DNA of 64,000 nt from a virus, in IMG/VR virus record IMGVR_UViG_3300045988_108377, positions 1-64,000 of that record. One strand, given 5' to 3'. Under the pieces are notes generated by a model. It had not been told where the DNA came from. It did no database searches and was given only the letters and a program-made list of their open reading frames with translations. Every line of letters starts with the position of its first letter. Within the stretch, counting starts at the first letter, position 1. Shown here one piece after another: positions 7,563 to 52,648 of this stretch. The position numbers and the translations under genes are program-made.

Positions 7563-8297
7563 CTATTCTTCCGTTTCCTTGGCTATTCTTTCCTTGGCAA
7601 TCTTGAAAAACTTCTCGTTATTTTCGATACCGATGTACTTTCTGCCTAATCTATTGGCAGCTATTGCCGTTGTACCCGAACCTATGAAAGGGTCTATCAC
7701 CACTTCACCTTCCTTGCTTGAGAGGCTGATTATTCTATTGAAAATCTCCAAAGGCTTTTGGGTAGGGTGATACTTTGCTTTAAGATATGAACTTTTAATT
7801 ACCCGGCTATACATGGAGCTGTCTTCAAGTTTATTGAGGGCAGTTCCATTTTCATATATTCTCACAATGAACTCCACATTTTGAGCAAAGCGTTGCTTCG
7901 ATATGATGCATACCGGCTTTTCCCAAATCAATATGGCAAACTTGTATTTATGCGCCATCGCCCACTCGTAATAGTCTGCTATCTGTTCCTCCGAGCAAAA
8001 GATATATGCATTCATCTTCACCATGACACGAGGAACGAGGTCAAGCCATGCGTAGATGTCAGAACGTTGTAATCCATTCTTGATACGACACATTCCGCTA
8101 TTGTCTGTGTAATCGTATAGGGTAGACTTACACATATTATTCTTAACTTTCTTCGTTTCGCTATGAATGCCCTTTGTAAACCTATAAGGAGGGTCTGCAA
8201 TGAGTAAATGGCAGCAATAAGCTGGCAATTCGTCTAAAATCGCCTTGTTGTCTCCAAAAATGAGCTTGTTTTCTGTTATTTTATTGATGTACCTCAT
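7563..8297 (-). CDS. DNA amino-methyltransferase (N6-adenine or N4-cytosine), beta class
   Basis: 244 aa. Motif IV LLIADPPY lies N-terminal to motif I VIDPFIGSGTT, the beta-class order. DPPY favours m6A. Confidence 0.85.
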   Translation of the reverse strand: MRYINKITENKLIFGDNKAILDELPAYCCHLLIADPPYRFTKGIHSETKKVKNNMCKSTLYDYTDNSGMCRIKNGLQRSDIYAWLDLVPRVMVKMNAYIFCSEEQIADYYEWAMAHKYKFAILIWEKPVCIISKQRFAQNVEFIVRIYENGTALNKLEDSSMYSRVIKSSYLKAKYHPTQKPLEIFNRIISLSSKEGEVVIDPFIGSGTTAIAANRLGRKYIGIENNEKFFKIAKERIAKETEE

Positions 8298-19610: not shown

Positions 19611-20972
19611 TCAGTCGTTTTTCCTCGTCTGAACCTTCATCGTTGCACCAGCAGATGGCTTTACTCTGCGGAAGAACATCGCCATGATAAGCATATCGAG
19701 ATAGTCTGGAGAGTGGCCGAGGATGATTTTCATCACCTCTTTCTTGATGATGTCGTACTTCTTTAGGTCATTGTCAATATCGGCCATCTTCAAGGCACCA
19801 AGTTCATCCGTGATTCTCTCACGCTGCTCTTGTGTGCAGACAATCTTGATAGCTCTTTTATTGACAAGTTCTGCCAGCTTATAAGCACATTCAGCCTTTA
19901 GGTTGGCATATCTTGGGTCCATAGGTCTTCCATTTCCATGGAACTCCTTGATTCCGTTAAGGTAGCTTTCCAAGAAAGAGCCGACACCATCAGCATCTAC
20001 AACCATCAGAGACCTAGGAATACTATCATTTATCATCATATCCTTTAGCTGGGTCTCTACTTCCTTTCCTGGTGAATAGTCGGTGTCTATCTTGATGTAG
20101 CAGACATTGCCAACCCAAGAACCAGCAATAAACCTGTCATGTCCCTTTCCTGCGATGTCAGCAGAACCGCTATGGGCGCCCTCAGGCTTGATGTGGTCGT
20201 TTGTAAACAAGTCATTGATAGCATCATAATCACAAAGAACAGATGGATCGTCATCATACTCGAAGTTTCCAAAGTAAAGTCGTTGTATGGTTACTTTATC
20301 CGCTTTGAGCAAGTTGTCTATATAGTCTTGGTCTACATACGGATTATCTATAGGCAGGGCTTTAATGAATTTTCTATATGGTGGAAGTGTTCCCTCTTTC
20401 GCAGGTTTTACAAAATCATTGTATATCCAATTCCTTTTTGGATTACAAGTATAAAGTGCCTTAGGTATGGTGTGCCATCTCGTACCATCAGCCCGTACAC
20501 CATTGAGCAAAGAAAAACGACCTTTTAATACCGAAATAGCTTTTTCTGAAATCTGCTGAGCTTCGTCAACAAAGAGGTCTGTAATAGAAAGCGAACCTAA
20601 ACGGTCATACTCTGGGTCTCTTGGGGCATATATCAAATCACGAAACAGAATTTTACTTCCATTAGGGAAATACATTATACTCTTTACCTCGTTGAAACGA
20701 ACACATGAACGTAATTTCATCATGTCTAACATTTCCCACATGGTGACAAGTGTGGTGTCTTTGAGCTGGGTAAGTACCTCTCGGCAAACTAAGCCTACAC
20801 TTCCTGGTAATGTTATTCTTCTCAATATCTGCCAGATACAGCCAAAAGCAGATTTTCCTCCACGAGCTCCACCGCCATACAAAAGCTCTGTAACAGTGTC
20901 GTTCTCGGAGGAAAGAAATTCATAAGCTTGCGCTTGCTTTGGAAACAATCTAACATCTATTGATTTCGGCAT
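19611..20972 (-). CDS. terL: terminase large subunit
   Basis: ATG at 20970-20972 (MPKSIDVRLFPKQ...). Walker A YGGGARGGKS, Walker B LFVDEA, coupling motif TCNP, and C-terminal nuclease-like acidic motifs (SADIAGKGHDRF, VVDADGVG). Confidence 0.85.
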   Translation of the reverse strand: MPKSIDVRLFPKQAQAYEFLSSENDTVTELLYGGGARGGKSAFGCIWQILRRITLPGSVGLVCREVLTQLKDTTLVTMWEMLDMMKLRSCVRFNEVKSIMYFPNGSKILFRDLIYAPRDPEYDRLGSLSITDLFVDEAQQISEKAISVLKGRFSLLNGVRADGTRWHTIPKALYTCNPKRNWIYNDFVKPAKEGTLPPYRKFIKALPIDNPYVDQDYIDNLLKADKVTIQRLYFGNFEYDDDPSVLCDYDAINDLFTNDHIKPEGAHSGSADIAGKGHDRFIAGSWVGNVCYIKIDTDYSPGKEVETQLKDMMINDSIPRSLMVVDADGVGSFLESYLNGIKEFHGNGRPMDPRYANLKAECAYKLAELVNKRAIKIVCTQEQRERITDELGALKMADIDNDLKKYDIIKKEVMKIILGHSPDYLDMLIMAMFFRRVKPSAGATMKVQTRKND

Positions 20973-21018
20973 TCTTTTACTGTTTATGATTGTAAAAATG
21001 TAAAAGAGATAAATTTGT

Positions 21019-21246
21019 CTATCGACTGAATTTTGGTATATTATCTGGGTCAAAAACAAAGCCTTCTTTAGGAAGCAAGTAAAGCCCAAGATAATGAACC
21101 AACTTATCCAATTGTTTGAGGTTTATGTTGCGTGTTCCTTTGATGTAAGCATAAAGGTTCGCAGTGTTAACCCCGATAGCTTCGGCCACTTTATCAACTT
21201 TGAGTTCTCTTTCGTAGATGGTCTTTCTTATTTTTTCTCTGAACAT
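21019..21246 (-). CDS. XRE-type HTH protein
   Basis: 75 aa. KVDKVAEAIGVNTANLYAYIKGTRNINLKQLDKLVHYLGL. Paralogous to 21253..21444 and to both halves of 27663..28052. Confidence 0.65.
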   Translation of the reverse strand: MFREKIRKTIYERELKVDKVAEAIGVNTANLYAYIKGTRNINLKQLDKLVHYLGLYLLPKEGFVFDPDNIPKFSR

Positions 21247-21252
21247 ATTATT

Positions 21253-21444
21253 CTACTTTTGTTCTACAAGTGTTAAACCTAAATAATTACAGATTCTCTC
21301 TACCTCAATATATGGTATTGGTCTCTTTCCATTGATGAATGGAGAGAAGTTGTGCTCGTTGAGTTCTAGCTTTTGGCAAAGGTCTCTGGACCGGACGCCA
21401 AGTTCTTTCATCCTTAGATGGATTCTTTCGTTTATTTCTATCAT
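21253..21444 (-). CDS. XRE-type HTH protein
   Basis: 63 aa. LGVRSRDLCQKLELNEHNFSPFINGKRPIPYIEVERICNYLGL. Confidence 0.65.
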   Translation of the reverse strand: MIEINERIHLRMKELGVRSRDLCQKLELNEHNFSPFINGKRPIPYIEVERICNYLGLTLVEQK

Positions 21445-23108
21445 TTTATTCTGTCTTTATAAATGTTATTTACTAAGTCGAATACTCTTTCTTCTGCCGA
21501 GTCTTTTGCTCCAGTGACGATGCCGGCTTGCTCTCTTTCTTTTTGGATGATGGAGTACATTTTCTCATCGAATGTATTTCTACCAAGCAGATAAGTGCAA
21601 GTAACAACGTTCTTCTGTCCGTTTCTGTGCGCTCTGCATTCACATTGGTCGCAGTCAGCAGCAGTCCATGGGAACTCAAGGAAGAGTATGTTAGACGCAG
21701 CCGTAAGAGTGATTCCGACACCTCCGCTTTTGATGTTTACCACGATAAGGTTGCAGTTCTTGTCGTTTTGAAAAGCATCAATGGCTTTCTGCTTCTGTTC
21801 AGGGCTGTCATCGCCCGTTACCTTTACGACACCCTTGAACTCCTTTTTTATACTCTTTACGAGCGATTTGTGTGCAACAAACACAATAAGTTTGTTTCCT
21901 GCGTCCACTATATCATGGATAGACTTCAGTGCTTCTTGCAGTTTTCCCTCTGCTGTTATCTGTCGAAGTACATTGATTTGGACGATAACATAGCCACGTA
22001 GAGCCTTTTGTATCTCTTCATCATCGGCTTCTTTGTATTTCTGCAGATAGTCAATAAGGTCAAGTTCTGCCTTTTCGTATTCAGATCGATTAGTGATTTC
22101 CAAGACGTTATATTGCCGGATCTTCTCTGGTAGCTCCTTCAAGACAAGAGATTTGTCCCTCCTAAAATAGCACGTTTCCCAAAGTCTGTAGTTCAGCTCT
22201 GAAAGCCTTTCGTAATCAACATCAGGTTGGCAATATCTGTCCTTGAACGCTGCTGTCCCTCCAAAGTCATTTATTCTTCCCATTATCTTGAGCTGCTGGA
22301 TAAGGTCTTTGTTGCCAGTCACTATTGGGGTTCCTGTCAGCATGTATACGTATTCCTTACCTTTGCACATCGCTTCTAGATACTTACTCCAAAGCGTTGA
22401 GGCTTCCTTGCATCTGTGACATTCATCTATAACCACGCTTTTGAATAATCTCATGCGACTATCAACCTCTAGGTTCTTTACCGTTACCCTTTTGGTCTTA
22501 CAGCCAAGGATAAAGAATTTCTTTACGCTCTCGTAATTGGTGATGAAAACCTTGCAGGTTCCTGTATGAATATAGTAATGCCATCTGTCCTTGTTCTTAT
22601 CATCAAGTATCGCAGAATTCTTTCCGGTGAAACGTTTGAACTCCCTCTGCCAAGTTATTTTCATGCTTGCCGGACAAACTACAAGGCAAGGGTAGGAGTT
22701 AGCTATGTCAACGGCTGCTATGGTCTGAAACGTTTTACCGAGTCCCATATCATCGCAGTTGAATGTGCGTTTGTGGACCACCATATACTGAATGCCTTTC
22801 TTTTGGTAGTCGTAAGGCTCGAGCAGAAGATGGTGCGGAAATCGCAACGTAGGCATTCTGTCTGCAATACCTTCTGCCTCTGATGGGTCGCTAAGATGAA
22901 CGACGTCTGAAACAATGAAACGGCTTTTGGCGTAATCACAGAAAGCATCAATAAGAAGCTTGTCTGTCTTTTGAATATGCCAACAGCCTGATTTCATATC
23001 AAACTCTGCACTCGGTATCTTTTTTACAAAGTGAACGAGTAAGGTACTATTACCAAAACGCAGCTCGTAATCTGTTCTGTTTTCCGTTACGTATATCTTA
23101 TTCTCCAT
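21441..23108 (-). CDS. SNF2-family (SF2) helicase/translocase
   Basis: The track start at 23150 is GTG. I prefer the ATG at 23106-23108. Motifs: DYQKKGIQYM, motif I DDMGLGKT, motif II DECH, motif VI QCECRAHRNGQ. Confidence 0.85.
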   Translation of the reverse strand: MENKIYVTENRTDYELRFGNSTLLVHFVKKIPSAEFDMKSGCWHIQKTDKLLIDAFCDYAKSRFIVSDVVHLSDPSEAEGIADRMPTLRFPHHLLLEPYDYQKKGIQYMVVHKRTFNCDDMGLGKTFQTIAAVDIANSYPCLVVCPASMKITWQREFKRFTGKNSAILDDKNKDRWHYYIHTGTCKVFITNYESVKKFFILGCKTKRVTVKNLEVDSRMRLFKSVVIDECHRCKEASTLWSKYLEAMCKGKEYVYMLTGTPIVTGNKDLIQQLKIMGRINDFGGTAAFKDRYCQPDVDYERLSELNYRLWETCYFRRDKSLVLKELPEKIRQYNVLEITNRSEYEKAELDLIDYLQKYKEADDEEIQKALRGYVIVQINVLRQITAEGKLQEALKSIHDIVDAGNKLIVFVAHKSLVKSIKKEFKGVVKVTGDDSPEQKQKAIDAFQNDKNCNLIVVNIKSGGVGITLTAASNILFLEFPWTAADCDQCECRAHRNGQKNVVTCTYLLGRNTFDEKMYSIIQKEREQAGIVTGAKDSAEERVFDLVNNIYKDRIK

Positions 23109-23526
23109 CTTTACTTTGTGGCGCAGACGGTCCAGAAGCTTTCGTGTCACAAATCAAGTTGATAACCTGGGGTAAAGCCTCGCCACCCGATGTAATGTCT
23201 ACGGAAGTTCCGAAGCCTTCGTCCTTTCCTAGCGTCTGCAAGAAATAACGGAGCATCTGGCCGTCTGGTTTCTCAATCCAGCCTACAAGTTTTCCTTTCT
23301 CGATTTTGGGAAGACCTAAGGCGAGTATTCTTGCTTGACCAAGACATTCATCAAACAAACGTTTACGGTGTTCTTGTACAATTTCTTTGAATTCCGGTTC
23401 TCCATTACACCAATTATAAATGGTTTGTCTTGTAACATGAAGTATTTTGGCTGCATCCGACATATTGCCGTGCGCGGTCTCCATTACTTCACGAAATTCA
23501 TCTATTGACGGTTTTAATAGCTTCAT
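23098..23526 (-). CDS. HTH DNA-binding protein, possible terminase small subunit
   Basis: 142 aa with an N-terminal HTH (MSDAAKILHVTRQTIYNWCNG). The TerS call rests only on domain type and position upstream of the packaging genes. Confidence 0.35.
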   Translation of the reverse strand: MKLLKPSIDEFREVMETAHGNMSDAAKILHVTRQTIYNWCNGEPEFKEIVQEHRKRLFDECLGQARILALGLPKIEKGKLVGWIEKPDGQMLRYFLQTLGKDEGFGTSVDITSGGEALPQVINLICDTKASGPSAPQSKDGE

Positions 23527-24002
23527 ACATCAAACATATTTAATTGTTTATAGTGAACTGGTGGTTTTATGCCGTTGATTGCACCAGCATTTATCATGTT
23601 GGCAAACCACCAGTTCCTACACGTATTAAACTCTTGCTTATTTGCTTGCGGCAATTTCCAATCGATATACTCGTTGGTTATATTGATTCTGCGAGCATTT
23701 TCTATTCTTAGAGTACAAAACTCATCGTCGATATTGATGTTGTGCCCCAATGCTGGAGCAAAGGCTACATGAAGGTTATGAGACCAAATCCAATCCTCAC
23801 ATACCCCACACAAATAGTAAAGTCTGGATTCTTCTAGTTTAAGCTCTCTGTTTGGGTTAAGTGGAGTTCCACCCCATATTCTTCTATCGAACTTACCAAT
23901 CAGACATTTTGTGCAATGCTGACTGAGGTCTATATCTCTGACGAGTTTTAACCAAAGGTACCTATAGTTCCTTTTTGGTTTGAAGTACTTAATTGTTACC
24001 AT
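23523..24002 (-). CDS. hypothetical Cys/His-containing protein
   Basis: 159 aa, the first gene behind cassette B. ATG at 24000-24002. Confidence 0.55.
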   Translation of the reverse strand: MVTIKYFKPKRNYRYLWLKLVRDIDLSQHCTKCLIGKFDRRIWGGTPLNPNRELKLEESRLYYLCGVCEDWIWSHNLHVAFAPALGHNINIDDEFCTLRIENARRINITNEYIDWKLPQANKQEFNTCRNWWFANMINAGAINGIKPPVHYKQLNMFDV

Positions 24003-24108: not shown

Positions 24109-25485
24109 TTAATTACCATTGTCTTCAACCGTTGGAAAACCAAACAATTGACGGACATCATTGTGCCGATGGTAACGTTGGTTGTTCGGTAACTTCATAT
24201 TGAACTCGTAATCAATTGCTGCTATGTATTCTTCGTCACTCAACTCTCTTGTTTTTTCTACTCCGAGTCGCCAATATGAGTCTCTGTCAGAATAGAATAC
24301 CTTAAATCCAAAATCATCAATTAGTTTCTGTACGTCCTCTTTGGAATGGAATTTCTGATAAAACCACTGACCTTCTAGCATTATCGCTGTTAAACCATTC
24401 TCGTCAAGAAAACGAGCCGAGAACATTTCATCTGTTGTATTTCTTTTCTGTGTCATTAAACTAAGGATTGTCTCCTTGCTTCTGCCACAGAAGAAAATCT
24501 TACCTCCAGGCTTACAGAACAACATGAGAATAGCAATAACAGAACGCTCAGCTTCAACACAATTTACTGAATTGATAACACTTTCTGCTATACAATAATC
24601 AAATTTTCCATTCTTCTTGACAAAATTGATAAGTTTGGTAATCATCTCTTGCCCCTTCTCCACGCTGATACCCTTGCGGTTATGATTGAAAAACTCTAAG
24701 CCTATTGCATTCTTATAGCCATATTTCTTCTTGAGCTTGTCGACACACATAGCTTTACCGCAACCAAAATCAAATACAGAAACATCTTTTTGATCTTTAA
24801 GAATCCATTTAGTTGCCACGCGATATAGGGTTGACCACTCCATTCCGGCAGCTCTTGGAGGTTGAGCTAGTCCTTGAACAAAATCTTCTCTGTCTAGATG
24901 GTCATAGCTGTAAACGCCATAATCCTTTGAGAAATAAAAATTGTACTTTTCCAAGTACTTTTTATCCAAAATATAGCCATGCACAGGAATATCAAGGATT
25001 TGGGCAGCTCTAACATAATTGTTTCCAAAAACAACTTGACCGTCACAAATAATAGCACTAAGTGCATCACCATAACGGGTGATAAGCATACACATGTCCT
25101 TGACGTATGATGCTCCGCTGTTTGGTATGTCAAAATCTTTATTGGAAATATCATCGTAGAATTTCCCGACTTCCAGATTTCCCTTATACAAACCTTTTTC
25201 TTTTGGTTCACTTTCTATTCCGTTATGAACTTGATTGAAAAGAATCTCGTCTACGAGCTGTACTCCAGATACGAAATAGGCTGGTACTTCATGAATACCA
25301 ATAGCTGTTGCAGCTTTTGTACGCTGGTGTCCGGCAACAATGGTCTTGTTGTCACGATTCACGATAATCGGCAGAATAAAGCCGAGGTCGTTAAGACTAC
25401 CTTGCAGGTTTACGAAAGCCTCTTGACTTAACTTTCGAGGATTGTAAGCTGCAGGCTTGATGTCTGAAATCTTGATAATCTCCAT
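24109..25485 (-). CDS. ParB/Srx-like N-terminal domain fused to a class I SAM-dependent methyltransferase
   Basis: 458 aa. The N-terminus IKPAAYNPRKL...VAGHQRTKAA is ParB-N-like. The C-terminal half has MTase motif I VFDFGCGKA followed by LEFF and FCKPGGKIFF. No DPPY/NPPY or PCQ DNA-MTase motifs were seen. Confidence 0.7.
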   Translation of the reverse strand: MEIIKISDIKPAAYNPRKLSQEAFVNLQGSLNDLGFILPIIVNRDNKTIVAGHQRTKAATAIGIHEVPAYFVSGVQLVDEILFNQVHNGIESEPKEKGLYKGNLEVGKFYDDISNKDFDIPNSGASYVKDMCMLITRYGDALSAIICDGQVVFGNNYVRAAQILDIPVHGYILDKKYLEKYNFYFSKDYGVYSYDHLDREDFVQGLAQPPRAAGMEWSTLYRVATKWILKDQKDVSVFDFGCGKAMCVDKLKKKYGYKNAIGLEFFNHNRKGISVEKGQEMITKLINFVKKNGKFDYCIAESVINSVNCVEAERSVIAILMLFCKPGGKIFFCGRSKETILSLMTQKRNTTDEMFSARFLDENGLTAIMLEGQWFYQKFHSKEDVQKLIDDFGFKVFYSDRDSYWRLGVEKTRELSDEEYIAAIDYEFNMKLPNNQRYHRHNDVRQLFGFPTVEDNGN

Positions 25486-25487
25486 AA

Positions 25488-26168
25488 TTATTTTTGATTT
25501 AATTTGTTAAACAAAAACTTCACGAAACCAAAGTCAACTCCTATTTCATCAACATAATTCTCATATTGTTCAACAAGCTCGGCATATTCTTTTTTGCTGA
25601 CTGCTACCGAATTTTTGCCAAACATTAGTACGTTAATCTTCTTTGCGCTCTTAGAAAGTTTGTTCTTCTTAACCACCGTATCGTCTTCCGAAGCGTCATA
25701 GAAAAGACCTTCGTCGAATCCAAAGTTAACGAGATTTATTTGGTCATACATCTTTGTAAGGCGGTCAAAGTCATATTCTCCGTATTCTTCGTTGTCCTTA
25801 AAGATGTACTCTTTTTCTTCTTTCTCTGTTAAGTCTTTGGCTACAGATACTTCTACAACTGGATTCTTAACCCACTCTTTCCAGTAGTCAACGACTTGTT
25901 CTTGTTGCGATGGTGAAAGCAACTTCCATTTTTCATTTTCTGACATCGTTAGAATCCAATCCATAGGAGAACTTTTTAATATCTCCTTGAGAATATCAGT
26001 ACGTTGATTCCCACCAAGTACCATGTTATCTTTATTGATGGTAATGTCACGATAGTAAAGCATCTTAGGAAACAAAAGAATGCTCTGCTTTAAACGTGCT
26101 TTCTTGTCTTTGCTAATCTTTCTAGGATTGTTTGGATTGGCGATTAATTCTGTTACATTTATCTTCAT
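25488..26168 (-). CDS. ParB/Srx-like domain protein (paralog 2)
   Basis: 226 aa. LIANPNNPRKI...LGGNQRTDIL. Shares WVKNPVVEVSVAKDLTEKEEKEYIFKDNEEYGEYD with the upstream paralog. Confidence 0.65.
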   Translation of the reverse strand: MKINVTELIANPNNPRKISKDKKARLKQSILLFPKMLYYRDITINKDNMVLGGNQRTDILKEILKSSPMDWILTMSENEKWKLLSPSQQEQVVDYWKEWVKNPVVEVSVAKDLTEKEEKEYIFKDNEEYGEYDFDRLTKMYDQINLVNFGFDEGLFYDASEDDTVVKKNKLSKSAKKINVLMFGKNSVAVSKKEYAELVEQYENYVDEIGVDFGFVKFLFNKLNQK

Positions 26169-26890
26169 TATTCTTCCTCCTCTGAATTTTCGTTATTGTC
26201 AGCTTCGTACTCAATTCCAAGTAGATATGAGAGGAAACCATCACCGCTTCCAAAATTCTGCTCACAATAATTTGTAAGAGCATTATCGAGCATTTTGTAC
26301 TCTTCATCTGTGATGGTTACTTCGATATATCCGCACTTGAATGACTTGGAACGAACAACGGTTGTATCTACTTCTGCATCGTTAATCTTATTCTCGTCGT
26401 AATCATACAGATTCCAAGGCACAGAACCTACATATTCCTCTATATCACTACGGTCATACTCCTTTTTGAGAACTTCCACATCGTCCTCTCCATAATGAAG
26501 GTTGTCTTTGGCAAGAAACTCCTTTTCTTCCTCAGGTGTCATGTCATCTGCTATCTTTGCCGGCACGACAGGATTGTCCTTCCATTTGTTCCAAAAGGAC
26601 TTCAACTCGTTCTGTTTCTCCTCGGGAGCGAGACGATACTTAGACTGGTTTTCCAGATATTCCTCAATCTCAGCATCTTCCATGTTGAGAATATTCAAGA
26701 GAACTTGGAGACGCTGATTGCCACCGAGAGCCACCTTGTCCTTATTTAAGATGATAGGGCGGAGCTCTAACATCTTAGGAAATACAAGAAGGCTCTCAGT
26801 GAGCTTGCCCATCATGAACTCACTGATTGTTCGTGGATTCTCAGGGTTCACTTTCAATTGTGTTACTTTTATTTTCTTTTTCGTTGCCAT
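26168..26890 (-). CDS. ParB/Srx-like domain protein (paralog 1)
   Basis: I prefer the ATG at 26888-26890 (MATKKKIKVTQLKVNPENPRTI...LGGNQRLQVL), 4 nt after the cmoA-like stop. 1-nt overlap with paralog 2. Confidence 0.65.
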   Translation of the reverse strand: MATKKKIKVTQLKVNPENPRTISEFMMGKLTESLLVFPKMLELRPIILNKDKVALGGNQRLQVLLNILNMEDAEIEEYLENQSKYRLAPEEKQNELKSFWNKWKDNPVVPAKIADDMTPEEEKEFLAKDNLHYGEDDVEVLKKEYDRSDIEEYVGSVPWNLYDYDENKINDAEVDTTVVRSKSFKCGYIEVTITDEEYKMLDNALTNYCEQNFGSGDGFLSYLLGIEYEADNNENSEEEE

Positions 26891-26894
26891 ATTA

Positions 26895-27656
26895 TTAATC
26901 TTTAATTGCGATGATTCCACAAAAATTCAGGTGCTTCCAGAAGGTATCAATCTTTCGAAAACCTGCCATCTTTAACATACTGATGTTCATTTCTTCGGTA
27001 AGAGGGCAGAGCACACCTTCCAGGGACTTACGCTTGCCAGCTATCTGTTCTTCCGTATATTGGTTCTCTCGCTTCATGTCGTAATAGATTGAAGAGAAGA
27101 GTTCACCAATCTCGGCTGAGTTGCCGAGTACTTTTTCCACCAAGATGAAGGCACCGCCATCGTTTAGGCTGTTATAAACACTCTCTATGATTCCTTGGCG
27201 ATACTCTATTGGTATAAACTGCAAGGTGAGGCATGAGAGAATGACAGAGCAACCACCACTAAAACTAAGGTAACCAATTGGGTGCTTAGCGAGGTCTAAA
27301 CCCATGACACGAACATAACCTTCTGAAATCTGTTGTTTGTAGTGTTCACGACATTTTGCAAGCATCGGCTCGCTAACATCATAAAGATAGGAGATAACTT
27401 CTTTCGAATGGTTAGCGATAATGCCTTCTGCCGACAGACCATTGGCGCAACCTAAGTCCACGAACCGAGTGTTTGGCTTGATAAAATGCTCTGCAACATT
27501 ATCCACCAACTTTCGCATGACAGAGTAGTCTGGTATGGAGCGTTCCAACATATCCGTAAAAACGTCGGCTACGTTTTGGTCAAAATCCCAACTACCGGAC
27601 AGATTTCTTATGTCGTCTCGTTTCTTTGCTTCTATATTATTGTTTTGCTGTGCCAT
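26895..27656 (-). CDS. cmoA: CmoA-like carboxy-S-adenosyl-L-methionine (Cx-SAM) synthase homolog
   Basis: 253 aa, colinear by eye with E. coli CmoA (phage vs E. coli):
- WDFDQNVADVFTDMLERSIPDYS vs [23 protein letters not shown]
- VDLGCANG vs YDLGCSLG
- LTLQFIPIEYRQ vs FTLQFLEPSERQ
- GGAFILVEK vs GGALVLSEK
- GKRKSLEGV vs QKRSMLENV
- NFCGIIAIK vs NFGSLVALK. Confidence 0.75.
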   Translation of the reverse strand: MAQQNNNIEAKKRDDIRNLSGSWDFDQNVADVFTDMLERSIPDYSVMRKLVDNVAEHFIKPNTRFVDLGCANGLSAEGIIANHSKEVISYLYDVSEPMLAKCREHYKQQISEGYVRVMGLDLAKHPIGYLSFSGGCSVILSCLTLQFIPIEYRQGIIESVYNSLNDGGAFILVEKVLGNSAEIGELFSSIYYDMKRENQYTEEQIAGKRKSLEGVLCPLTEEMNISMLKMAGFRKIDTFWKHLNFCGIIAIKD

Positions 27657-27662
27657 GATTCT

Positions 27663-28052
27663 TTATTTTATTGTTGCAACCTCAAATCCGAAATAGTCAA
27701 TCAAGGCATACAACACCTTTGCCGACATCTTCCTTTTCTCGTTTACTATTGTCGAAAGTGTGCTACCGCTCACGTTTGTTGTCTTGGCGATAGTTACCAT
27801 TTTCTCCTTGCAATCTTTAAGACATGCCTTCACTTTGTCCTCTATTAGATTGGGTGAGAAGGCTGAATCGTCTTTCTTCCAAGTTAGATTCAAGAGTTCC
27901 ATGACTTTCACGAGATTTTCTGTTGTCAAGTTGCGATTTCCTTTCAAAAATGCATTGAAGTTCTGAACGACCAATCCACATTCCTTACACACCATCGTCT
28001 GATTGACACCCCGATAGTGCATTCTTTCCTCTATAATTTCATTTATCTTCAT
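27663..28052 (-). CDS. tandem double XRE-type HTH regulator
   Basis: 129 aa with two HTH units: NQTMVCKECGLVVQNFNAFLKGNRNL...MELLNL and VTIAKTTNVSGSTLSTIVNEKRKM...IDYFGF. It is the first gene of the cmoA/ParB operon. Confidence 0.7.
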   Translation of the reverse strand: MKINEIIEERMHYRGVNQTMVCKECGLVVQNFNAFLKGNRNLTTENLVKVMELLNLTWKKDDSAFSPNLIEDKVKACLKDCKEKMVTIAKTTNVSGSTLSTIVNEKRKMSAKVLYALIDYFGFEVATIK

Positions 28053-38152: not shown

Positions 38153-38629
38153 TTAATATGGGTAACTCAAATTCTCTGCCTTGATGTCAGACAGAAAGTC
38201 CACAAACTCGTTTGCTGTTGACTTCGCTTGCTTTAGATCGTGTAAGGAATAGTTGCCACATTCCTTTGGTGAACTGCCTGGTATCACACCTTCATAGTCA
38301 GCAATGACTATGAACATATCCCTAATAAGGTCTATCACTTGCAAACTATCGTAGTCGCCATTGAGAATGAGGTAGAAACCTGTGAGGCATCCCATAGGTC
38401 CGAAATAAACGACCTTATCCTTCCATTTGCTGTCGTTGCGTAGGATTGTCGCTCCGATGTGTTCGATGGTGTGAGCGCACTCTGGAGTTAACATGTCGTA
38501 GTTCGGCTTCTTGATACGAATATCAATAGTTGTGATGGTCTCACCCATGGAAGTAACATCTTTGCGAGAAACATAGATTCCACGGTCTAACTTCGTGTGG
38601 TCCACTTTAAAACTTGCAATTTTACTCAT
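38153..38629 (-). CDS. luxS: S-ribosylhomocysteine lyase (LuxS)
   Basis: 158 aa. SFKVDHT, metal-site HTIEH, PMGCLTGFY and CGNYSLH all match E. coli LuxS (SFTVDHT, HTLEH, PMGCRTGFY, CGTYQMH). ATGA overlap with mtnN. Confidence 0.9.
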   Translation of the reverse strand: MSKIASFKVDHTKLDRGIYVSRKDVTSMGETITTIDIRIKKPNYDMLTPECAHTIEHIGATILRNDSKWKDKVVYFGPMGCLTGFYLILNGDYDSLQVIDLIRDMFIVIADYEGVIPGSSPKECGNYSLHDLKQAKSTANEFVDFLSDIKAENLSYPY

Positions 38630-39318
38630 ACCAATTCCTCCAAGATTTTCTTTGTTTTGTCAAACGACCATTTTGCTACGTATTTCCAAAAATTCTCATA
38701 TTGCTCTTCTTCACAATTATCACTTATGATTCTGATGGCCACGAACGGAACCTTATAGCGGTAGCAGGTCTGTGCGATACTGCAACTCTCCATGTCTACA
38801 ACGGAAGCCAATGGATATGTTGCTTTAAGTTTAGCCTTTATTACCGGGTCGACAATGAACTGGTCGCCACTGATAACACCAGCTATTCTTATGTTGTGTC
38901 CGAGTATTTTTCCAATACGAGCACATAAGTCACCTTCGGTGTTGATGCCAACCTCCAAAGGTGTGAATGTGCTTGGCATTCCTTGTACTTGTCCCTTGAC
39001 AAGTTCTTTTCCACAGAACACATCATGATAATGATACCATACACCCATGATAGTCTCACCCGAATGTAATTCTTCGTCCAGTGAGCCTGCTACTCCGGTA
39101 GATAGTATAAAGTCTGGTTCGTAGAGGGTAATCATTTCAGCAGCTCCCAAAGCAGAGTTGACCTTGCCTATTCCGCACTGCTGTATGACCACTTCATTCT
39201 TGCCGACATTACCGATCAAATAGTCAAATACTCTGCCATGTTCGGCTTGTCCTTCTGAAATGAATCCTTTTAGCAGCTCCATTTCCTTAGACATAGCTAC
39301 TAATATTCCTATCTTCAT
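38626..39318 (-). CDS. mtnN: 5'-methylthioadenosine/S-adenosylhomocysteine nucleosidase
   Basis: 230 aa. MKIGILVAMSKEMELL, CGIGKVNSALGA, STGVAGSL, VSGDQF, VDMESCSIAQ and FVAIRIISD are colinear with E. coli MtnN/Pfs. ATGA overlap with metK. Confidence 0.9.
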   Translation of the reverse strand: MKIGILVAMSKEMELLKGFISEGQAEHGRVFDYLIGNVGKNEVVIQQCGIGKVNSALGAAEMITLYEPDFILSTGVAGSLDEELHSGETIMGVWYHYHDVFCGKELVKGQVQGMPSTFTPLEVGINTEGDLCARIGKILGHNIRIAGVISGDQFIVDPVIKAKLKATYPLASVVDMESCSIAQTCYRYKVPFVAIRIISDNCEEEQYENFWKYVAKWSFDKTKKILEELV

Positions 39319-40592
39319 AAGCCAAAAGCCTCTTTGATGTAATCAACAGAATCAAGCTTTTCCCATGTAAAAAGCTCAACTTCAATACTATGACCTTCGA
39401 TTTTCTTGCGTTTCTTGCAAGGAATTCTGCCCATGTGCCCATAAGCAGCAGTTTCTTCATAGATAGGCTGATTAAGTTTCAACTTCTCAACGATTGCTCT
39501 TGGACGCATGTCGAAATTAGAAGCAATCCATTCTGTAACACCTTCGTCAGTCATTTCTACGTGTGAAGTACCATAGGTGTCAACACAGATACTTACTGGC
39601 TCTGCCATACCGATAGCGTAGGAAATCTGAATGAGCATCTTATCGGAAACACCTGCAGCAACCATATTCTTCGCGATATAGCGAGCCATATAGGCTGCTG
39701 AACGGTCTACCTTACTGCTATCTTTACCTGAGAAGGCACCTCCTCCATGCGCTCCAGCACCTCCGTATGTATCTACGATAATCTTACGACCTGTGAGACC
39801 TGTATCTCCATGAGGACCACCAATTACGAACTTGCCAGTCGGATTCACAAGCAACTTGAATCCCTTGTCAAACATCTTGACAACATTGTCGTCAGCAATC
39901 TGTTCCTTAACTTCTTGAAGAACGTAGTTCTCAACATCGTATGCTATCTGTTTCTGCATTTCTGCATCGGCTTCATCTTGCGACATCGTTTTCGATGGCT
40001 TGATAAAGTCCTCGTGCTGAGTTGAGACAACAATGGTGTCAATGCCGAAAGGTTTGCTGTCTTTGTATTCGACGGTTACTTGACTCTTCGAATCCGGACG
40101 CAAATATTTCATGCCACGCCCATTCTTTCTAATGAAAGCAAGTTCCTTGACAATCTTTGTGGCGATGTAGTGGGAGAGAGGCATGAATGTTTCAGTCTCG
40201 TTGGTTGCGTAACCGAACATCATACCCTGGTCGCCGGCACCTTGCTCATCTTTTGACTGCCGGATAACACCCCTGTCGATGTCTGCGCTCTGCTCATGCA
40301 AAAGATTGATGATACTACAACTCTCGAAGTCAAAGTTGTCACCATATTCCGTGTAGCCAATGCGCTTGATGGTCTTACGTACAACCTTAGACACATCTAC
40401 ATGAGCGGTTGATTTTACCTCACCAGCGAGAACTACCTGGTTGGTAGTAACCAAAGTTTCGCAAGCTACATGAGCATCAGCATCCTTTGCTATATAAGCG
40501 TCAAGAATAGCATCGGAAATCTGGTCTGCAACCTTGTCAGGGTGTCCTTCTGATACGGATTCTGATGTAAAAAGTTTCTTTTCTTCTATCAT
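39315..40592 (-). CDS. metK: S-adenosylmethionine synthetase
   Basis: 425 aa. FTSESVSEGHPDKVADQISDAILDA, GAGDQGMMFGYA, GGPHGDTGLTGRKIIVDTYGG and GGGAFSGKD. Long Bacteroidetes-like form. Confidence 0.95.
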   Translation of the reverse strand: MIEEKKLFTSESVSEGHPDKVADQISDAILDAYIAKDADAHVACETLVTTNQVVLAGEVKSTAHVDVSKVVRKTIKRIGYTEYGDNFDFESCSIINLLHEQSADIDRGVIRQSKDEQGAGDQGMMFGYATNETETFMPLSHYIATKIVKELAFIRKNGRGMKYLRPDSKSQVTVEYKDSKPFGIDTIVVSTQHEDFIKPSKTMSQDEADAEMQKQIAYDVENYVLQEVKEQIADDNVVKMFDKGFKLLVNPTGKFVIGGPHGDTGLTGRKIIVDTYGGAGAHGGGAFSGKDSSKVDRSAAYMARYIAKNMVAAGVSDKMLIQISYAIGMAEPVSICVDTYGTSHVEMTDEGVTEWIASNFDMRPRAIVEKLKLNQPIYEETAAYGHMGRIPCKKRKKIEGHSIEVELFTWEKLDSVDYIKEAFGL

Positions 40593-51286: not shown

Positions 51287-52648
51287 TTATGTACCACACC
51301 AAATATCCTTTAACCGTTCAACTTCTTGTTTAAGTCCATTCTTTGCTATCTCATTGATTTTTTCTTTTAACAGCTGAGGCTCAAGCCGGTGAATTTCTTC
51401 ACTCAATTCCTCAAGAGTCATTTGCGGTTTCATTATGTAGTCTTTGAGTTTCGCTTTCTCTGTCCTATCAAGGAGTTTGCCGACAATATCATCTTTCAGA
51501 TAGTATTTATCTCCAGCTTCATTTTGAAGAATATCGTCAATAACGATTCCTCTATCTTTCGGTTGAGGAATATCCGACTTCTTGGTTGGCGGTTCAAAAG
51601 GATCGTCGTCAAAATCAAACAAGTTCGTCTTACCGGTGTCTTTTACTCTGATGTTCGTCCAATAGATACGCTTGCGCTGCTGGGCAGATACCAAAGCAGA
51701 ATTGATGTGAACACCACGAATACCGATAGCATGAGACAGACAACGCTCCCATTTGTCAAGCATTTCTACGTTTTCGAGGAAGAAGAGTATATTTTGGTTA
51801 TACTTGCGTAATTCTGTGAGAACACGCATATACTCCCAAAATAGATACGACTGGCCTTCAAACTCAAAACCTTGTGCTTTTAGTTCCAAGTACCGGTCAA
51901 GAGTGTAAATCTCCTCTCCATGACTTGTTGCTGCGCCTTTCAGCTTACCGCTCATAGAAAAGCCCTGGCATGGTGAACCACCGATAAGAATGTCAGGAAT
52001 ACCATATTGCCGTACCATTTCGTCCACATTTAACTCTGTGACACTACCTATCTGAATAGTATTCGGGAAATTGTGCATTGTGTTTGCGATAGCATGCTTG
52101 TCTATCTCTGACGCAAGGTAGGTAGACACATTGGCACCAATACCATTGAGAGCCATCTGACCGCCGGATATTCCGTCAAACAACGACAATACTTTCATGT
52201 CTTTCTTTATCTCTTCGGGGATAAACTGAAAGATGTGCTTGATAGTCTCTATGTTCCATCCGTTACCAATACCATGGTACTGCTGTGTTTCGGAAGAAAC
52301 AAACTCATAGTCGTGTGGAATTGTCTGCAACTTCGCACATTCTGATGGTGTCAGTCTACGTATGAAAGAAACAAAGGTGTGGCCGTTTATTTTAATCTCA
52401 TAGCCTTGCTTGTCCTCCGGCATACGTTTCCTTATCTCTTCAAGCTGTCTTTTCCGAATGTTTCTGATGGCTTGTGATGCTATTTCTTCTTCATTACGCA
52501 TATTCTCAAATATTTGTAAAATGGCGGCTTTGTCACCACGTTTTCCTATACTTACGATGTGCTCAGTAGATAACGATCGGCACTTTTCTTTTCCACCTTT
52601 TATTATAAGGTGTGCTTGCGTACTAGGATAAATGACCGCTTGCCTCAT
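51287..52648 (-). CDS. DNA (cytosine-5)-methyltransferase, circularly permuted, Dnmt3-like motifs
   Basis: 453 aa. Motif IX RRLTPSECAKLQTIPHDY and motif X GIGNGWNIETIKHIF (residues ~97-135) come before motif I VLSLFDGISGG, motif IV GGSPCQGFS, motif VI FLENV and motif VIII QQRKRIYWTN. A ~110-aa C-terminal tail follows. Confidence 0.8.
   Translation of the reverse strand: MRQAVIYPSTQAHLIIKGGKEKCRSLSTEHIVSIGKRGDKAAILQIFENMRNEEEIASQAIRNIRKRQLEEIRKRMPEDKQGYEIKINGHTFVSFIRRLTPSECAKLQTIPHDYEFVSSETQQYHGIGNGWNIETIKHIFQFIPEEIKKDMKVLSLFDGISGGQMALNGIGANVSTYLASEIDKHAIANTMHNFPNTIQIGSVTELNVDEMVRQYGIPDILIGGSPCQGFSMSGKLKGAATSHGEEIYTLDRYLELKAQGFEFEGQSYLFWEYMRVLTELRKYNQNILFFLENVEMLDKWERCLSHAIGIRGVHINSALVSAQQRKRIYWTNIRVKDTGKTNLFDFDDDPFEPPTKKSDIPQPKDRGIVIDDILQNEAGDKYYLKDDIVGKLLDRTEKAKLKDYIMKPQMTLEELSEEIHRLEPQLLKEKINEIAKNGLKQEVERLKDIWCGT

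Follow-up and report, generated by a model that had tools for sequence, protein, structure and literature searches.

A 64,000-nucleotide stretch of viral DNA (positions 1 to 64,000 of IMG/VR virus record IMGVR_UViG_3300045988_108377, hereafter the window) carries a compact cluster of five minus-strand genes. These include a homolog of CmoA, the synthase of carboxy-S-adenosylmethionine (Cx-SAM), two small ParB-like proteins, and a 458-residue protein in which a ParB N-terminal (ParB-N) domain is fused to a class I methyltransferase. We favor, by a modest measure, the interpretation that this cluster is a variant phage carboxy-SAM DNA-modification system in which the cytosine-modifying enzyme CmoX is replaced by the ParB-fused methyltransferase. 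Natural DNA carboxymethylation has been known since late 2025 from one enzyme family, CmoX, which acts on cytosine C5. Among the closest relatives of the window cmoA, the ParB-fused class I methyltransferase is a more frequent partner than CmoX, and it occurs in phages and prophages whose hosts belong to Bacteroidota, Verrucomicrobiota, Planctomycetota, Chloroflexota, Actinomycetota and further groups. An earlier sequence-only reading of the window had proposed that these genes make Cx-SAM and use it to modify phage DNA. Its CmoA assignment stands and the fusion is the likeliest client, whereas the Cx-SAM cofactor of the fusion and its DNA substrate are still inferred.

The CmoA homolog, the fusion and the small ParB-like proteins

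The CmoA homolog matches the TIGR00740 model for CmoA (E 9e-48, 163 bits), NF011995 and phrog_4752 (237 bits). Its score falls below the curated TIGR00740 equivalog cut-off (163 vs 193.3 bits), a threshold that is too strict for phage CmoAs, since the biochemically verified phage enzyme SpCmoA reaches 115.6 bits on the same model. Alignment with E. coli CmoA (4GEK) extends over residues 21-252 (phmmer E 3e-38), in agreement with the whole-length colinearity previously seen by eye, and H. influenzae CmoA (1IM8) is also colinear (phmmer E 1e-33). In E. coli CmoA, Arg199 forms a salt bridge with the carboxylate of Cx-SAM (PMC3663124). The Arg in the window segment GKRKSLEGV aligns with this residue, as the sequence-only reading had proposed, and six other ligand positions are conserved with it. 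The E. coli ligands Y39, D62, G64, D89, F137, E164 and R199 (ligand list from PMC3663124) correspond to Y44, D67, G69, D93, F147, E174 and R209 in the window protein. Three ligands are changed (S66A, N90V and N132C, E. coli numbering). N90V and N132C are common to other phage CmoAs, including that of the canonical cmoA-cmoY-cmoX cluster in locus L023, to which the window protein is 54% identical; its identity to SpCmoA is 32%. Judged by its sequence, the window protein is very likely to have Cx-SAM synthase activity.

CmoA had been regarded in the sequence-only reading as having a single known role, in the formation of uridine 5-oxyacetic acid at tRNA position 34 (cmo5U34), a view that is outdated. 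In December 2025, Yang et al. (Nat Commun) reported that CmoA of Synechococcus phage S-B43 supplies Cx-SAM to CmoX, a homolog of C5-methyltransferases with an SPPC motif and Arg350 that makes 5-carboxymethylcytosine (5cxmC) in DNA, and that CmoY, an asparagine-synthetase-like amide ligase, joins glycine to 5cxmC (PMC12783734). ParBc-domain proteins are present in many CmoX contigs, and a preliminary search in that study gave no CmoA-associated candidates for N6-adenine or N4-cytosine carboxymethyltransferases (PMC12783734). Further CmoA homologs, TglE and MccS, act in natural-product pathways (PMC10491745). The general idea of Cx-SAM DNA modification in phages is already published (PMC12783734). 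The ParB-fused class I methyltransferase as a Cx-SAM client appears new; our literature search found no paper linking ParB, methyltransferase and Cx-SAM.

The fusion has a ParB_N domain at residues 2-70 (PF02195, E 8e-9) and a weak Methyltransf_23 match at residues 230-396. It belongs to phrog_5475 over its full length (255 bits, E 2e-75), with residues 4-448 aligned to positions 6-452 of the 458-position profile. As previously described, motif I of the methyltransferase reads FDFGCGKA and the DPPY, NPPY and PCQ motifs are absent; no recognized N6_N4 or C5 DNA methyltransferase domain was detected in the protein. Family-wide invariants are D-F-G-x-G, a Glu in motif II, V-x-N-S-V after beta4, a Gln, and an E-F pair. 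In its ParB part the fusion shows homology to the N-termini of ParB-fused DNA methyltransferases (phrog_498, E 7e-20), and in PADLOC this part alone matches the ParB-fused MTase_II model. When 1.84 billion proteins were searched with the methyltransferase domain, 319 representative clusters were recovered. Nearly all of these are proteins of ~460 residues in which the domain starts near residue 190, so the domain is almost confined to the ParB fusion architecture. The fusion is rare in general, with seven full-length matches in 50,697 GenBank phages. Two clades can be distinguished, clade I with proteins of 500-530 residues and clade II with proteins of 450-480 residues, the latter including the window protein.

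In the AlphaFold2 model of the fusion (predicted local distance difference test score, pLDDT, 84), the neighbors of the methyltransferase domain found by Foldseek and by profile search against the PDB are Trm9, METTL6, GNMT, the cap-N7 enzyme RNMT and UbiG. A CmoB-like identity for the fusion was rejected, as Pfam, NCBIfam, Foldseek and profile-versus-PDB searches gave no support for CmoB (Methyltransf_9).

The two small ParB-like proteins (226 and 250 residues) both carry GGNQR and are ~35% identical to each other; with their matches to ParB-type PHROGs, this confirms the earlier description of them as paralogs. For paralog 2, a Foldseek search with the AlphaFold2 model (pLDDT 75) placed cytidine triphosphate (CTP)-bound ParB, Noc and KorB on top (7bnr, 6sdk, 7ol9, 7bm8 and 8qa9), with a root-mean-square deviation of ~2.5 Å over ~130 residues. 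In the predicted structures, the paralogs consist of a ParB/Noc/KorB-like N-domain and an extra, unmatched C-terminal part. The canonical CTP-binding motif GERRxR is replaced by GHQR in the fusion and by GGNQR in the paralogs. An HTH_ParB (parS-binding) domain was found neither in the fusion nor in the paralogs, unlike in a separate 540-residue ParB encoded in the window, which may have a prophage partition or segregation function.

Partners of cmoA in related loci

To each side of the 80 closest cmoA relatives in IMG/VR, and of the 80 closest in GTDB, 10 kb were surveyed with a simple open reading frame (ORF) caller. The IMG/VR loci comprise 48 with the fusion, 26 with a CmoX-type C5-methyltransferase, five that are truncated (cmoA less than 1.3 kb from the contig end), one with neither partner and none with both. 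Among the GTDB loci, which come from many phyla, the corresponding numbers are 38, 14, 13, 15 and 0; binning of metagenome-assembled genomes (MAGs) in GTDB may misassign phage contigs, and the GTDB scan patterns recover the phage-type CmoA clade alone. The co-occurrence of cmoA-like genes with ParB-methyltransferase fusions, which the sequence-only reading had suggested looking for, was thus found in 86 of the 160 pooled loci, with CmoX-type genes in 40 and both partners in none. The CmoX-type genes in IMG/VR mostly have GSPPC and G-R-x-VPP and directly adjoin cmoA. CmoX systems are probably commoner overall than in this sample, because 4,257 cmoA genes have been counted in CmoX contigs (PMC12783734).

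The mutual exclusion of the two partners persists when the loci are dereplicated. Clustering at 90% CmoA identity leaves 33 fusion-only and 33 CmoX-only clusters, 15 with neither and none with both (Fisher p = 2e-11). With a 70% threshold p = 2e-5, and two clusters are mixed, which indicates partner switching between close cmoAs. The fusion and cmoA occur together in at least six gene orders, and their ORFs overlap in L127 (by 4 nt) and in L143. In a prophage of Prevotella lacticifex JCM 34664 (L186), cmoA is accompanied by a double fusion. Fusion-linked cmoAs occupy at least five places in a neighbor-joining tree of CmoA, computed without support values, where they are interleaved with CmoX-linked ones, so that the type of partner changes at least five times. 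Given the survey counts and the rarity of the fusion, neither coincidence nor a common insertion hot spot can account for the fusion-cmoA link.

In 79 of 86 fusion-type cmoA loci, the fusion is immediately preceded by one or two small ParB-N genes, and in 22 of 40 CmoX-type loci such a gene immediately precedes CmoX. From these frequencies, both variants have the order small ParB, transferase, CmoA, with the transferase alone exchanged. A CmoY-like ligase occurs in 7/40 CmoX-type vs 0/86 fusion-type loci. Conversely, a gene of ~160 codons separates the fusion from cmoA in 67/86 fusion-type loci, with clade I fusions alone, vs 0/40 CmoX-type loci. Its product (e.g. L113:6205-6690, L020:9531-9998 and L145:5214-5705) has the conserved segments 'IILLDLNYTLV ... 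ITARP ... ESNP', is haloacid dehalogenase-like by eye alone, gave no match in Pfam or the PDB, and has no homolog in the window.

In cmoA loci with neither partner, another gene of methyltransferase fold usually adjoins, in three cases a PEMT/ICMT-like membrane methyltransferase. Adjacency to cmoA is therefore a good marker of a Cx-SAM consumer, which also holds for CmoB, TglF and MccB (PMC10491745). On the bacterial MAG contigs concerned (L190:3530-6198, with homologs in L192 and L237), cmoA is followed by the PEMT/ICMT-like gene. Next after it, in L190 and L192, comes a chorismate mutase-DAHP (3-deoxy-D-arabino-heptulosonate 7-phosphate) synthase fusion, which would supply prephenate. This type of cluster may serve carboxymethylation of a lipid or small molecule with its own prephenate supply.

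Proposed mechanism and alternative explanations

We hypothesize that the CmoA homolog converts S-adenosylmethionine (SAM) and host prephenate to Cx-SAM, phenylpyruvate and H2O, and that phage-encoded metK, mtnN and luxS supply SAM and clear S-adenosylhomocysteine (SAH). The fusion would then transfer the carboxymethyl group from Cx-SAM, a step suggested by gene association. That the fusion consumes Cx-SAM is likely in general and somewhat less so for clade II. Its ParB/Srx N-domain, probably together with both small paralogs, would deliver the enzyme to phage DNA. This DNA is probably the substrate, given the homology of the ParB part to ParB-fused DNA methyltransferases, the equivalence to CmoX and the pre-packaging gene position. 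The location of the genes just upstream of the terminase genes suggests that DNA would be marked before packaging, and the mark may protect the DNA from host nucleases.

Cytosine C5 is an unlikely target because the methyltransferase domain lacks the catalytic Cys (PCQ) motif; the mark could instead be placed, for example, on a purine nitrogen, either in the ring or exocyclic. It is conceivable, though we hold it less probable than not, that the fusion is a second natural Cx-SAM DNA enzyme, unrelated to CmoX, that carboxymethylates a non-C5 position. If this holds, it would represent a second natural type of DNA carboxymethylation, with a chemistry new to DNA modification and a new way around restriction, and a non-C5 mark would add an as yet undescribed modified base to DNA. 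It would also give a function to the widespread 'ParB-like / methyltransferase domain' pair that precedes terminase genes, also on ~48-kb E. coli phage-plasmids, and offer a new enzyme scaffold for placing carboxyl handles on DNA.

All eight clade I representatives are cmoA-linked. The picture in clade II, to which the window belongs, weighs against the favored interpretation, as do several further points. The clade II backbone, which is conserved in relatives, consists of two ParB genes, the fusion, a gene of ~150 codons, a terS-like gene, SNF2 and TerL, with paralog 1 kept upstream of the fusion throughout. Within 10 kb, cmoA is present in only 11/80 IMG/VR loci with the closest fusion relatives and, in this clade, in 7/36 lineage representatives, the seven being spread over at least four sub-lineages. 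It is ~3 kb upstream in L013 and L016, whereas L014 and L015 have no copy within 7 kb. The near-identical prophages L016 and L017 differ by cmoA versus a DUF6633 gene alone, and as L017 keeps the fusion with the DUF6633 gene in the place of cmoA, the fusion works without a phage cmoA. The complete Bacteroides BS-TP3, Yersinia vB_YpM_39 and Brochothrix BtpYZU02 genomes likewise have the fusion without cmoA. The claim that the genes form one operon stands as regards their tight packing, but an obligate operon-level system of five genes was rejected, as cmoA moves or is missing in clade II.

The protein itself adds to these objections. Neither the 50 best Foldseek matches nor the profile-versus-PDB matches include CmoB, CmoX or any DNA methyltransferase. 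A basic residue placed to bind the cofactor carboxylate, which the sequence-only reading had proposed to seek in the fusion, was not identified, and none is conserved across both clades; R335 of the clade II fusion is Gln in clade I. No residue convincingly separates cmoA-linked from unlinked fusions, the nearest being E362 (15/15 linked vs 8/29 unlinked). Phage DNA as the substrate is an indirect conclusion. The restriction of the surveys to the closest cmoA relatives, with simple ORF calling, and the lack of support values on the neighbor-joining trees also count on this side. Finally, the absence of CmoX applies to the 64-kb window, and the phage genome may extend beyond it.

The sporadic distribution of cmoA in clade II may be best reconciled with our interpretation by dual cofactor use or by Cx-SAM from the host. 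CmoB accepts both SAM and Cx-SAM (PMC10491745), and the fusion may similarly also take plain SAM. Phages of the clade without cmoA would then methylate, or use host Cx-SAM, and the gain of cmoA could switch the mark from methyl to carboxymethyl. Host supply is plausible because E. coli CmoA is enough to serve SpCmoX in vivo (PMC12783734) and cmoA-less fusions are found on E. coli plasmids. The clade II fusion with a small ParB gene occurs on ~48-kb plasmid records in 71/5,426 complete E. coli genomes; these records are presumably phage-plasmids. In one of these records (L264, NZ_CP070025.1 21219-23215), terminase and portal genes adjoin the clade II fusion with no cmoA near it, and cmoA is missing altogether from related complete Yersinia phage genomes.

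The same clade II distribution could be read to mean that the fusion is an ordinary SAM methyltransferase of the ParB/packaging backbone and cmoA an independent accessory gene, serving as a SAM drain or as a source of inhibitory Cx-SAM. Most clade II fusions are without cmoA, and where the gene is present it is mobile in position, varies between near-identical prophages and diverges more than its neighbors. Cx-SAM might competitively inhibit type I/III restriction-modification, bacteriophage exclusion (BREX) or SAM-AMP signaling, and SAM depletion was raised as a possibility in the CmoX paper (PMC12783734). We nevertheless consider this explanation unlikely. A stand-alone cmoA would be expected to be partnerless, but just one of 75 untruncated IMG/VR loci lacks both fusion and CmoX, and even there another class I methyltransferase adjoins. 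The rare fusion also occurs in CmoX-less cmoA phages far above chance, and phage metK makes SAM, which opposes depletion. Less likely again is that the fusion uses Cx-SAM on something other than DNA, such as RNA, a packaging or ParB-like protein, or (d)CTP or another nucleotide held by the ParB/Srx domain. tRNA, mRNA caps and small molecules are the substrates of the enzymes closest in structure to its methyltransferase domain, ParB/Srx domains bind CTP, and microcin C (McC)-type pathways carboxymethylate a cytidine nucleotide (PMC10491745). The fusion is, however, mutually exclusive with a proven DNA enzyme, with which it has the small-ParB accessory gene in common, and its ParB part is homologous to those fused to DNA methyltransferases; GHQR in place of the canonical motif speaks against CTP as substrate.

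We regard as very improbable that phage CmoA feeds host CmoB, raising tRNA cmo5U34 for phage codons, with the ParB genes as unrelated neighbors. This is the classical role of CmoA, and PHROG and RefSeq label phage homologs 'tRNA methyltransferase'. Yet the 64-kb window contains no cmoB and no tRNA gene, as the sequence-only reading had noted for the vicinity of the cluster; the phage cmoA clade has been experimentally tied to DNA modification in S-B43 (PMC12783734); and it would be left unexplained why cmoA is tightly linked to CmoX or to the fusion but never to both. The remotest candidate of all is the permuted C5-methyltransferase encoded elsewhere in the window (51287-52648), the only C5-methyltransferase there, acting as a Cx-SAM user that makes 5cxmC without the CmoX signature. 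It belongs to the same superfamily as CmoX, and engineered and some natural C5-methyltransferases can be made Cx-SAM-accepting (PMC12783734; PMC12015181). As CmoX itself this enzyme was rejected: Asn129 ('IGNGW') stands at the position of SpCmoX Arg350 ('VGRMV'), where the change R350N inactivates SpCmoX (PMC12783734), and GGSPCQ is present instead of SPPC. Its best PDB matches are DNMT3A/3B and DRM, and the CmoX structure 8YF3 is not among them. The gene is 24 kb from cmoA, whereas CmoX genes of the surveyed loci adjoin or overlap cmoA. A tblastn search of the window with SpCmoX found nothing beyond this gene, and CmoY gave no tblastn match there. The enzyme is circularly permuted and DRM-like, with motifs IX/X (residues 97-131) before motif I (residue ~150), and carries an N-terminal extension of ~95 residues.

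Genomic setting and comparison with known systems

All five packed minus-strand ORFs described by the sequence-only reading were found at the coordinates it gave (Table 1). In gene order they are separated by 6 nt, 4 nt, a 1-nt overlap and 2 nt; the 4-nt spacing assumes the ATG of paralog 1 at 26890, and the GTG start would give a 26-nt overlap. The first gene was confirmed by profile search as the double helix-turn-helix (HTH) regulator that had been proposed, and a gene of this kind also heads the ParB genes in L013 and L020. Following the fusion, the Cys-rich protein gave no match in Pfam, NCBIfam or PHROG and is kept at 45-99% in all clade II backbone relatives.

Table 1. Features of the window discussed in the text (positions in the 64,000-nucleotide stretch)
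Feature	Position	Strand	Basis or remark
Double-HTH (Xre/Cro-type) protein, first gene of the cluster	27663..28052	-	HTH_26 residues 7-57, HTH_3 residues 88-124
CmoA-family Cx-SAM synthase (predicted function)	26895..27656	-	TIGR00740, 4GEK, phrog_4752
Small ParB-like paralog 1, GGNQR	26168..26890 (or GTG start 26920)	-	ParB-type PHROG matches
Small ParB-like paralog 2, GGNQR	25488..26168	-	PHROG matches, AlphaFold2 model and Foldseek
ParB-N / middle domain / class I methyltransferase fusion, 458 residues, clade II	24109..25485	-	ParB_N, Methyltransf_23, phrog_5475
Fusion, ParB-N part (residues ~1-90)	25216-25485	-	
Fusion, methyltransferase part (residues ~215-458)	24112-24843	-	
Cys-rich protein, 159 residues, two CxxC pairs	23523..24002	-	follows fusion throughout clade II backbone
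Small-terminase-like HTH protein, start of packaging module	23098..23526	-	phrog_2538, phrog_4044, HTH_8
SNF2 helicase	21441-23150		downstream of small-terminase-like gene
TerL	19611-21089		Terminase_3 match
luxS	38153-38629	-	Pfam LuxS
mtnN	38626-39318	-	Pfam PNP_UDP_1
metK	39315-40592	-	three S-AdoMet synthetase Pfam domains
Permuted C5-cytosine DNA methyltransferase	51287..52648	-	PF00145, E 2.5e-36
DPPY-type N6/N4 DNA methyltransferase, ordinary amino-methyltransferase	7563..8297	-	PF01555, E 7.6e-29; DPPY at residue 35
Canonical ParB, 540 residues	32179-33801	-	ParB_N and HTH_ParB

The five-gene cluster is kept in all seven close IMG/VR relatives (L006-L012). Identities to the window in these loci are 94-99% for the fusion, 71-83% for cmoA and 60-92% for the HTH gene. 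The lower values for cmoA and the HTH gene suggest mosaic replacement or fast evolution of this segment. Promoter and terminator scans gave nothing above shuffled expectation, with the sigma-70 consensus used being inappropriate for Bacteroidota.

The luxS, mtnN and metK genes reported earlier in the same phage are present at 38153-40592. Together they would make SAM and remove SAH, which fits a heavy turnover of SAM or Cx-SAM. In a related prophage (L022:9043-12631), luxS and mtnN flank cmoA and a DUF1848 gene. In L016 and L017 (L016:9354-12032 and L017:9352-12030), the SNF2 helicase has 892 rather than 569 residues, with a faint Hom_end match, and probably contains an intein.

The window as a whole represents a temperate siphovirus-type genome, with integrase, tape measure, Sak4-like and DnaD-like proteins. 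No near-identical DNA was found among GenBank phages, so this phage is without a close cultured relative. The closest cmoA relatives in GTDB genomes are from Bacteroidaceae, Bacteroidales and Prevotella, for which reason the most likely host is a Bacteroidales bacterium of the gut or rumen.

Of the known systems, CmoA-CmoX-CmoY of phage S-B43 provides the nearest parallel in gene content: both have a phage CmoA, a small ParB-N gene by the transferase and a transferase gene adjoining cmoA, and both presumably serve to mark phage DNA. They differ in that the window has no CmoX and no CmoY, and its transferase is a ParB-fused generic class I methyltransferase without a catalytic Cys, which speaks against attack at cytosine C5. 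In the cultured Erwinia and Dickeya jumbo phages, the hypothetical protein encoded beside the cmoA homolog (gp17 of Erwinia phage Yoloswag, L002:6757-7632) is CmoY-like and asparagine-synthase-like, and from this these phages probably carry Cx-SAM-based DNA hypermodification.

The CmoA/CmoB pathway to tRNA cmo5U34 shares with the window the CmoA fold, Arg199, most cofactor ligands and the use of a class I methyltransferase-fold enzyme as the Cx-SAM consumer. In contrast to that pathway, the window genes are accompanied by neither cmoB nor tRNA genes, they lie beside terminase genes and with ParB domains, and the CmoB triad K91/Y200/R315 is not mappable on the fusion. ParB-fused phage DNA methyltransferases (phrog_498) resemble the fusion in their homologous ParB/Srx N-domain, in their site just upstream of terminase genes and in the small ParB-like gene that often precedes them. 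Their catalytic domains are of the N6_N4 (DPPY) or C5 (PCQ) type, whereas that of the fusion is a specialized class I domain with the pattern DFGxG...E...VxNSV...Q...EF.

In the TglE/TglF and MccS/MccB(CTD) (C-terminal domain) pairs, as in the window, the gene for a CmoA homolog adjoins that for a Cx-SAM-consuming enzyme of methyltransferase fold. The substrates there are peptides or a peptidyl-nucleotide, and the genes belong to bacterial biosynthetic clusters without phage ParB modules. Engineered M.MpeI N374K illustrates that the methyltransferase pocket decides Cx-SAM acceptance. It is an engineered C5-methyltransferase in which a basic residue replaces the motif X Asn, a residue with no counterpart identified in the fusion.

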